DNA of 24,505 nucleotides from Candidatus Babeliales bacterium (lineage in GTDB: Bacteria > Babelota > Babeliae > Babelales > Vermiphilaceae). The notes beneath the pieces are model-generated. The model was not told the DNA's origin. It worked only from the letters and a program-made list of their open reading frames with translations, and ran no database searches. This document shows positions 21,855 to 23,498 of the stretch, in pieces (the first letter of the stretch is position 1; every line of letters begins with the position of its first letter). A program made the translations under genes and the position numbers. The stretch covers positions 1 through 24,505 of the forward strand of contig JBIOKB010000015.1 in the NCBI GenBank assembly GCA_044451405.1, read 5' to 3'.

Positions 21855-21931
21855 GCGCCTGTAGCTCAGTTGGATAGAGCGACGGACTTCGAATCCGTAG
21901 GCCGCAGGTTCGAATCCTGCCGGGCGCACCA
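21855..21931 (+). tRNA. tRNA-Arg (TCG)
   Basis: GCGCCTG-TA-GCTCAGTTGGATAGAGC-G-ACGGA-CTTCGAA-TCCGT-AGGCC-GCAGG-TTCGAAT-CCTGC-CGGGCGC-A-CCA; A20 in the D-loop fits Arg identity. Confidence 0.96.
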
Positions 21932-23377
21932 TAGTTTATCATCCGTACAATTTAGGATCACATCAAAGGGCTTTTGAGCCTCGTAGACGATGTTTTCGCC
22001 TTCTACCCGTAGGTTCGATAGTACGAGCTTGATTAACTGTCGTTTTTCTTCAACTTCAGAACTTACAAATAAATCATAGGCACGATTCGTGATTTCTAGC
22101 ACATATTTTGCGGTTATGAAGTAGTTATCTTCTGCTTCCTGCAATTTGGCAAGCCGTGCAGTAACGTCATCTATTTGTTCCCGCAGGATTTTATAAAACC
22201 TCTCATGGTCTTCTTCAGTAATAGTTCCCCTGAGCTTATCCATGTAGAGCTTATCGATCATCTTGGTTATGTTCTTTTGTTCTTGAGTGAGCTTATCGAA
22301 CTGTTGGTTATGGAACTCTATTTTATGTTGGTGAACCTCGTTAAGCGTAGCCGTTATTTTTTGCAGCACGCTTTCAGGAACATACAGGCGCTTAAAAACT
22401 GCTTCTAACTGCCTGGTTATCTCTTCTTCTCTGAGCCATTTAGCCCCATGCTTACCGTTGAATTGCGTACAGTGATAATAGACATGACCTTTGTGTTTTT
22501 CAGGCGTTATGGATAACCCACACTCTGCGCAGCGCAATAGCCCTCTATAGATATAAGGTTGCCCTGCATATTTATAGCGTCTTTTATTGAACCGTGCTTT
22601 AGTTTGTTGTACCTGATCAAAGAGCTCCTTGGTAATAATGGGAGGGTAGCGGTGTGGATACATTTTACCCTTACAAATCATGATGCCATGGTAAAAAGGG
22701 TTTCTAAACACACAATCAAGATACCCAACCGACCAATTCAGCCCAAAATCAGCTTTCAGTTTTTTGCAAAGCAACTCCAGTGAAAACGCGCCGGTAGCAT
22801 AGAGTGCAAATGCGGTATTAACAATGGGGGCAGCATAATCGTCGACGATGATGTCATTTTTACCGTGAGTGTTTTTAATATTCTTGTAACCATAGGGAGC
22901 TTTACCAGTCCATTCACCCTTGTGTCTTTTTTGTTCAAGCGCTCGTTTAACGTTATCGCTTATAGCATCTGAGTAATATTTTGCTAACCCAAGACTCATA
23001 CCAAACTGGAACTTTTCTACCGCGGAGATTTGGCTCGTGATTACTTGGCCATCGGAAACAAAATGAAGCTCGATCTTATCACTAAGCGCCATCTCATACA
23101 GAAGCGACACGCGTTTATCAAACATATTGCGGGATAACCGGTCTACCTTATCACAGCACACCGCAATTTTCTCTTTTTGTTCCTTGATAAACTCGATAAT
23201 GCGATCAAATTCATCACGCTGGTCAGTATAGGCGCTTTCATCAAAACTATAACGTTGAATGATAGTAAGTTGTTTTGCTTGGCAGTATCTTTCAACGCGC
23301 GCAACCTGGGCTGGTAGGGAATTACCTGCTTCTTTTTGATCTTCGGTACTAACACGGGCGATAAGGACGGCTTTCAT
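21866..23377 (-). CDS. Large serine recombinase/integrase (resolvase + recombinase + zinc ribbon + coiled coil); C-terminus read antisense through tRNA-Arg
   Basis: ARVSTEDQ catalytic Ser motif, [46 protein letters not shown]...YYHC zinc ribbon, long coiled coil. Confidence 0.95.
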
Positions 23378-23498
23378 AGGGGGACTTCACCTGGCTGGTT
23401 ATGATGTTTTGATGACCACCTTATTGTAGCAGAATTGAGGCCTTTTTCACCCAGCAGGATCAAGCAGTATGGCGGTCGACATAGTGTACACTTCGAAC
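21929..23498. mobile_element. tRNA-Arg-anchored integrative element end / recombinase cassette (right boundary uncertain)
   Basis: Serine integrase converging on and fused to the tRNA 3' end; an att-like inverted site at 23457-23498. No direct repeat of the tRNA 3' end found within the window. Confidence 0.6.
23423..23431 (-). promoter_or_regulatory. Putative extended -10 promoter of the recombinase
   Basis: TGcTACAAT on the minus strand about 45 bp upstream of the ATG at 23377. Confidence 0.5.

Follow-up and report, generated by a model that had tools for sequence, protein, structure and literature searches.

An inverted attachment-type site upstream of a tRNA-targeting large serine integrase in a Babeliales genome

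Among described systems, the A118-like (LI) Listeria integrase offers a close comparison for the locus reported here. In the available part of its description (Rutherford et al. 2013, PMC3783163), the enzyme has the domain order resolvase, recombinase, zinc ribbon and coiled coil, and one motif recurs in attB- and attP-type arms, the zinc-ribbon-domain motif of attB being shifted 5 bp towards the centre relative to attP. The same part of that source has serine integrases recombining attB with attP, or attL with attR together with a directionality factor, and not other pairings. Here we analyse the integrase end of an apparent mobile element in a Candidatus Babeliales bacterium (assembly GCA_044451405.1). 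The window is a whole contig of 24,505 bp (JBIOKB010000015.1, here C15) from a genome (G000) of 1.02 Mb in 89 contigs, 95.7% complete. It carries a large serine recombinase (LSR) gene that ends inside a tRNA gene, with a second, inverted attachment-type site on its other side. The LSR shares the domain order and the 5-bp offset with the Listeria integrase. In contrast to that system, attB here would be the T-loop/acceptor/CCA end of a tRNA gene, with several tRNA species serving across the family, the motif that is shifted would mimic a T-loop, and the attP crossover with the whole P arm would lie within the integrase coding sequence.

Inverted att sites of a large serine integrase also flank a DNA segment in the phiC31 and Bxb1 inversion switches (available part of PMC11891168). 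Those switches use attB with attP, or attL with attR and a directionality factor, whereas here attL appears to be paired with a truncated attP around the integrase gene itself. In Thermococcales, the pTN3 integrase and its tRNA-linked att sites accompany inverted segments (available part of PMC5495485), but that system is archaeal, employs another enzyme family and produces large chromosomal inversions. The small serine invertases Hin, Gin and Cin share the serine catalytic domain; they are of ~190 residues and use identical inverted sites plus an enhancer, in contrast to the 503-residue integrase-type protein and non-identical sites described below. In the integration-dependent immunity of mycobacteriophages BPs and Brujita, attP reportedly lies inside an open reading frame (ORF), and integration alters the C-terminus of the protein. 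Their tyrosine integrases cut a repressor ORF, whereas here a serine integrase would cut its own gene. Our literature search found no description of tRNA-targeting serine integrases in the phyla concerned, or of attP inside an integrase ORF, though large surveys of serine recombinases, and supplements, may cover some.

Two facing sites around the integrase gene

The two sites lie 1.54 kb apart. The left one, read as the reverse complement of 21929-21944, is GGATGATAAACTATGG, followed 14 nt later by TTCGAAC, which reverse-complements the tRNA T-loop (21908-21914). The right one, on the plus strand, reads GGATCAAGCAGTATGG (23457-23472), then 19 nt, then TTCGAAC at 23492-23498. The two 16-mers are identical at 11 of 16 positions, and the right site is inverted, 92 nt upstream of the integrase start. 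Only the 503-residue LSR ORF and one promoter-like site stand between them (Table 1). A first-pass annotation of this DNA had described the same picture, and its motifs with their N14 and N19 spacings, its shared TATGG/CCATA core in inverted orientation and its count of what lies between the sites can all be read from the sequence as it gave them.

Taken from the window alone, chance as an explanation of this resemblance is ambiguous. Two occurrences of the exact composite (11 or more matches in 16, with TTCGAAC 5-30 nt further on) exist in 2.05 Mb, both strands included, and these are the sites themselves; TTCGAAC is found 25 times in the genome (1.02 Mb, both strands). For a composite of this class taken from a 100-nt junction, the expectation is 0.19 per 270 nt, and an ordinary local alignment of the two sites scores no better than 28% of random 270-mers. 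The motif pair goes beyond chance because, as detailed below, the arm is conserved independently in related sequences. As a separate observation, 25 copies of TTCGAAC/GTTCGAA are several-fold fewer than a rough base-composition estimate, and most of them are probably tRNA T-loops; restriction avoidance of TTCGAA is one guess for this scarcity.

The recombinase between the sites matches PF00239 (Resolvase, residues 3-156, E = 1.5e-21), PF07508 (Recombinase, 1.1e-10) and PF13408 (Zn_ribbon_recom, 3.7e-6, above the cut-off). Its PHROG matches are PHROG 95, integrase, at 2e-69, and PHROG 125, 'DNA invertase', over residues 6-194. A coiled coil is indicated only by a sub-threshold FlxA-like match at residues 357-416. 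By these domain matches, the protein is evidently a large serine recombinase with a resolvase-type catalytic domain, a Recombinase domain and a zinc beta-ribbon. Ser10, found within ARVSTEDQ in the translation, is the likely catalytic nucleophile. The gene is single-copy in the assembly, and its final 66 nt (21 codons and the stop) are antisense to tRNA-Arg(TCG). Its promoter-like site is weak when taken alone (one found in a consensus scan against 0.9 expected); a TGnTACAMT motif stands at an equal distance upstream of homologous LSR genes.

The right site also preserves a remnant of a C-terminal extension frame, discussed below. It is broken by TAG at 23482-23484, where the homologues have TTG.

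Table 1 Features of the integrase locus in the 24,505-bp window
Feature	Position	Strand	Basis and remarks
tRNA-Arg(TCG)	21855-21931	+	ARAGORN; intact, CCA encoded; supplies the B (attB-type) arm of attL through its T-loop, acceptor stem and CCA
Large serine recombinase (LSR, integrase), 503 aa	21866-23377	-	ORF; Pfam, PHROG
Putative attL	21905-21960	+	B arm GGTTCGAATCC...GCGCA; core CCA(TA); P' arm antisense to the last LSR codons ...DDKLW
Promoter-like site for LSR	23423-23450	-	-35 GTGAAA 23450-23445; 16-nt spacer; TG-extended -10 TACAAT 23428-23423
Putative relic attP (right site)	23453-23509	-	P arm 23509 to 23473; core CCA 23472 to 23470; P'-type arm 23469 to ~23453
C-terminal extension, reading-frame remnant	23470-23553	+	WRST*CTLRTFRWNELKEKLALIRHRY*; translated by eye
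Multi-pass membrane protein, 251 aa	23648-24403	+	ORF; on the P-arm side of the relic attP

Family junctions at tRNA genes and the 5-bp shift

LSR homologues occur in most of 40 relatives at 53-68% identity, with a second clade at 31-36%. We compared 21 homologous genome loci and 80 metagenome loci (40-66% identity). In 19 of the 21 genome loci the LSR gene and a tRNA gene (Arg-TCG, Arg-TCT, Glu, Asp or Gln) overlap at their 3' ends, the exceptions being L017 and L018. The same overlap recurs in 39 of the 80 metagenome loci, mostly at Asn-GTT (33), otherwise at Trp (3), Glu (2) and Gln (1); the remainder end at contig ends less than 90 nt from the gene (14) or have no called tRNA (27). At every overlap the CCA of the tRNA is the complement of the TGG (Trp) codon that closes the conserved part of the protein, and the ORF stops 11-152 nt inside the tRNA. 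A 254-nt contig from freshwater run X1 spans 21848-22101 of the window with 4 differences. The tRNA-LSR junction is therefore present, in the orientation observed here, in a second sample.

Two side observations concern these junctions. Thirteen LSR loci without an ARAGORN call (in metagenomes, for example L091, L093, L102, L105, L124, L126, L136 and L141) end in a tRNA-like T-arm/acceptor with B-type spacing, and may hold tRNA fragments or unusual tRNA-like genes. In L070 (G004, 1509-1750), a SpoVG paralogue breaks off after ~53 residues and continues in frame into the antisense of tRNA-Arg(TCT), which looks like a deletion ending exactly at the attL core; element-type SpoVG paralogues are present in L020 and L027-L029 as well.

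We then expressed the position of the T-loop motif as a spacing, counting to GAAC from the initial base of the TGG core. Of 90 loci with tRNA junctions (9 being duplicates, 11 without a core and 5 without GAAC), 65 have a GAAC, and in 64 of these it stands at +20. The 44 loci without a called tRNA divide into +20 in 13 and +25 in 8, besides 5 duplicates, 5 without a core and 11 without GAAC; L130 and L208 show GAAC at +25 by eye, and several of the 11 loci lacking GAAC have GAAT, GAAG or GAGC in its place. In the right site of the window, GAAC likewise stands at +25. Loci with this spacing have an extension peptide in common, W-L-x-x-[LV]-[DE]-x-[FLV]-R-T-x-x-W, whose range runs from Babeliales to Saccharibacteria and Paceibacteria; it is kept with synonymous changes in the DNA. 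We conclude from these spacings that the tRNA arm is B-type and the right-hand arm P-type, and that the 5-bp shift is a rule of the family. The exact shift first proposed for the window alone thus extends to the whole family (+20 versus +25), in agreement with the rule given in the available part of PMC3783163.

The P arm of the right site, TCCATCTAAAAGTTCGAAGTG-N16-CCA, recurs in relatives in two settings. In L018 (G024) and in the metagenome loci L076 and L079, no tRNA lies at the LSR 3' end and the ORF passes the Trp codon into an extension of ~30 residues. On the opposite strand these loci read TCCAwCTrAAA-TTCGAAGTG-N16-(G)CCA and then the LSR 3' end, and the minus strand of the right site in the window has the same sequence. 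In addition, an identical P-arm 21-mer is present in four other genera (G023, G012, G022 and G011). A reversed-pattern control for the P-arm search gave 4 matches, counted with up to one mismatch allowed. TTCGAA is 19 nt from the core in every copy of the arm. In the four genera, the P arm is followed by CCA and GTCTTCGC..., the usual tRNA-trailer type of these genomes; given this tRNA-type trailer after P-CCA, the P-CCA-GTCTTCGC junctions are best regarded as normal attR sites. A tRNA-Asp lies in direct orientation 7.9 kb (G023), 6.9 kb (G012) and 2.8 kb (G011) from attR, and the short G022 contig has no tRNA. In G023, an LSR remnant and a conserved 373-residue neighbour gene sit between tRNA-Asp and attR.

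Together with the family junctions, these copies of the P arm indicate that both sites are genuine attachment-type sites of a large serine recombinase, as the first-pass annotation had supposed, and that the right one contains a true P arm of the LSR family. In the complete chromosome of G024 (G024:C1, ~601300-605600), L018 consists of a tRNA-Asp, a 2.7-kb element without an LSR and then P-CCA-P'-LSR, all in direct orientation. By its layout this locus is a tandem array, a precedent for a chromosomal attP-type junction and a potential deletion substrate.

An inverted pair that is probably fixed in orientation

The inner arm of the right site, from 23469 to 23457, reads TACTGCTTGATCC. It matches LSR 3' ends at 14 of 16 positions in L080 and 13 of 16 in L030, and encodes in frame ...DQAVW, where theirs give ...SDQQVW and ...SDQTIW. 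Its match to the P' arm of the resident LSR is 11/16. No tRNA trailer of the genome (0 of 29) exceeds 11/16 against any P' arm, and random CCA+13 sites reach 14 or more once in 3000. The inner arm is thus, to judge from these matches, P'-type, the terminal ~16 nt of a different LSR allele; beyond these ~16 nt lies the promoter region of the resident gene. On this evidence the window would hold attL (B and P') together with a truncated attP (P and a partial P'), a pair in inverted orientation and apparently not a permissive one. Because attL and a truncated attP are not known to be a substrate pair for LSRs, flipping is improbable.

The layout is also solitary. Among 88 homologous LSR upstream regions only that of the window itself has it, and a scan of 18 homologous loci, each with its own junction motifs, yielded no such upstream site. 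Scanning 12 loci with a weight matrix of P' arms revealed no partner site, inverted or direct. Within 10 kb downstream, 19 loci showed no direct repeat of the tRNA 3' end; serine integrases would not be expected to leave one, and the result says nothing of where attR lies. We identified no directionality factor. The flipped form, as computed, would join tRNA-CCA to TACTGCTTGATCC and ...GATAAACTA to TGGCGGTCGAC. Four public runs shared 0.05-0.08 of the sampled words; their coverage was mostly tRNA from other organisms, with the 254-nt piece and two pieces of ~150 nt, and contained no joints.

For the family as a whole we propose the following mechanism. The window would represent the integrase end of a mobile element of a kind common in Babeliales (Dependentiae) and Patescibacteria, with its attP crossover inside the 3' end of the integrase's own gene. 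In the free (attP) state, the ORF would run past the conserved Trp codon (TGG, the complement of CCA) into the extension of ~30 residues, whose DNA would be the P arm. This arm would hold a T-loop look-alike (TTCGAA/GAAC) 5 bp further from the core than the real tRNA T-loop. On integration, strand exchange would take place at CCA(TA), the 3' end of the tRNA, leaving the tRNA intact and turning the integrase tail into tRNA-antisense codons. The window would then show the product, attL, at tRNA-Arg(TCG).

The right site, on the explanation that we favour with some reserve, is the scar of a second, oppositely oriented element, and the 1.54-kb segment is most likely fixed in its orientation. The P arm of one element would have been joined to ~16 nt of a different integrase allele, as between neighbours in an array, and the remainder of the second integrase gene would have been deleted. 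Family-wide comparison shows what each arm is and which way it points, that the 5-bp rule holds and that the layout is unique; where the crossover falls, how the deletion came about and that the pair is inactive are what we infer. The first-pass annotation had listed the end of a second, oppositely oriented island as its alternative, and a P arm joined to the P'-type arm of another allele comes closest to that proposal.

Its principal proposal was a minimal cassette of ~1.55 kb in which the LSR recombines both sites and flips its own gene, so that the tail alternates between tRNA-antisense codons and WRST* and the promoter is redirected toward the membrane gene. Such a cassette would account for two bona fide family arms that are inverted and share the TATGG core, for the real 5-bp shift and for an intact LSR with a promoter-like site alone between them, and the WRST* tail was correctly predicted. 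It is nevertheless improbable, given that attL with a truncated attP is a pairing that serine integrases do not recombine (as far as the available part of PMC3783163 extends), that half of the P'-type arm is replaced by promoter sequence, that the flipped tail would be stopped by TAG without the conserved TLRTFRW extension, and that none of the 87 other homologous upstream regions has such a site. An inversion that went one way only fares similarly. Here a single past attB x attP recombination in cis would have left attL and an inverted attR, and the 13-33 nt inside the right core would be the original trailer (B') of tRNA-Arg(TCG). An inversion of 21932-23469 would indeed restore tRNA-CCA-TACTGC... 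as well as LSR-TGG-P arm. TACT also begins the tRNA-Arg(TCG) trailers of L047 and L068, and G024 (L018) has a chromosomal attP near a tRNA; yet the inner arm agrees with LSR 3' ends, encoding DQAVW, and not with the tRNA trailers, and the true attR sites of relatives have GTCTTCGC-type trailers, unlike P' arms. Since its precursor would also require an element that lay no more than ~33 nt from the tRNA and had left its attP unused, we regard this history as unlikely.

The relic attP might instead serve as an operator, integrase binding occluding the enzyme's own promoter in an autoregulation without recombination. The -35 box lies 7 nt from the inner arm, and a full attP footprint (~25 bp on each side of the core in the available part of PMC3783163) would span 23445-23497 and cover the -35 hexamer at 23445-23450. 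Drawn from geometry, with a promoter call at chance level and a layout that 87 other loci do not keep, this role is very unlikely. A chance resemblance of ordinary intergenic sequence, which the expected composite frequency and the unremarkable local alignment would allow, is to our reading of the homologues refuted: the identical 21-mer in four other genera, the same arm at three LSR 3' ends, the conserved N19 spacing and the extension peptide kept through synonymous changes all speak against it.

Several observations weigh against a scar of a second element. Flipping is compatible with the reads, the four runs having shown only tRNA-like contigs and a few short pieces. The LSR ORF is full length and, from its sequence, could be active. 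Identical TATGG cores only 1.54 kb apart would be a striking coincidence for a scar, and the P'-type call for the inner arm rests on 16 nt. Moreover, a second integrase gene, or a remnant of one longer than 16 nt, was not found in the assembly (95.7% complete, 89 contigs), and no normal attR for the resident element was found beside tRNA-Arg(CCT) on contig C11, so a larger rearrangement is possible.

Surroundings, cargo and implications

In 11 relatives, tRNA-Arg(CCT) follows tRNA-Arg(TCG) after 29-905 nt, and 6 of these relatives have TlyA on the other side. Here tRNA-Arg(CCT) is found midway along contig C11, where its far flank keeps synteny with two relatives and its near flank comprises 9.1 kb with a Toprim/zinc-ribbon primase and a DUF5906/VapE/D5-type helicase, a pair that accompanies the LSR in L021, L028 and L029. 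The DNA to the right of the LSR is therefore not the ancestral neighbour. Because tRNA-Arg(CCT) adjoins tRNA-Arg(TCG) in relatives and sits on C11 here, at least 11.7 kb is inserted between the two tRNA genes, or a rearrangement breakpoint lies there. The history could be one of head-to-head elements with a deletion, or of an inversion within an array.

No matching direct-orientation attR for the window element was found in the assembly. Near tRNA-Arg(CCT) on C11 the best match is 14/19, at chance level, and there is no P-arm pattern; relatives with the same P arm show the ordinary direct layout over 2.8-7.9 kb. A search of relatives for an empty site did not yield B', the relatives being at genus distance: the left synteny (TlyA, tRNA-Arg-TCG, tRNA-Arg-CCT) is kept and the spacers are not alignable. 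Over its last 97 nt C15 matches C25 at 93%, and the next gene of C25 is matched at 85% by the end of C62. No assembler overlaps connect C15 with other contigs, and a C15-C62-C11 join is a guess. We also considered an inversion of the cargo between the promoter and a normal attR. It is disfavoured by the primase and helicase on C11, which have their usual orientation relative to the integrase, as seen in L021, L028 and L029 for both genes and in L031, L076 and L079 for the helicase; the contiguity of C11 with the locus is unproven.

With an integrase abutting an intact tRNA 3' end and element-type cargo beyond it, the locus has the appearance of a tRNA-targeting integrative element. The membrane protein gene (Table 1) has no Pfam or PHROG match and only weak paralogues or homologues, and is probably cargo of the element; a paralogue is found on contig C29. 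The contig ends inside a small DUF4177-like gene (24423-24505), of which a paralogous stretch with 93% identity lies on C25 (11587-11760). On the other side, a Gp49 (HigB-like) and Cro/C1 helix-turn-helix pair (21134-21781) lies directly upstream of tRNA-Arg(TCG), and the elements of L014 and L024 contain a similar pair, placed between integrase and the conserved 373-residue gene.

Cargo in homologous loci includes the primase, the helicase, the conserved 373-residue protein, toxin-antitoxin pairs and an ankyrin-IBR protein. The protein of ~373 residues, without a Pfam or PHROG match, accompanies the integrase in at least 9 loci, usually co-oriented (L014, L015, L016, L019, L020, L022, L023, L024 at 11625-12743, L032, L079 and L164 carry it), and is not in the assembly of the window genome. 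The cargo adjacent to the integrase in L023 (10941-12509) includes a 523-residue protein that combines ankyrin repeats with an IBR (RING-between-RING type) domain, a eukaryote-like protein on a mobile element of an intracellular symbiont. Short GIY-YIG genes of ~80 residues recur near att sites on C62 and C29 and in L164 and L169. Elsewhere in G000, on C16 (L075, 13700-14800), a tRNA-Val-Asn-Asp block is flipped relative to conserved neighbour genes: the genes upstream of tRNA-Val in L018, L021, L022 and L030 lie downstream of tRNA-Asp here. No att remnant follows the CCA at this block.

What the arrangement may do for the element can be put forward only tentatively, as a possibility that we rate below an even chance by a wide distance. 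The integrase could act as a sensor of its own state: a free element would make an enzyme with the extension of ~30 residues and an integrated one an enzyme with a short tRNA-encoded tail, tuning activity, stability or directionality without a separate factor. Within the same tentative proposal, an intact enzyme beside an attP remnant could drive rearrangements at tRNA genes, its own flip included.

More broadly, over 100 natural junctions in Dependentiae and Patescibacteria follow the pattern of T-loop and mimic, and would form a test set for models of attP-versus-attB discrimination. For genome engineering, integrases directed at the near-universal T-arm/acceptor end of tRNA genes may be of interest. 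For the biology of the elements themselves, a C-terminus of the integrase that changes upon integration may add a level of control, and chromosomal attP remnants beside live integrases may help to explain breaks of synteny at tRNA genes in small symbiont genomes.

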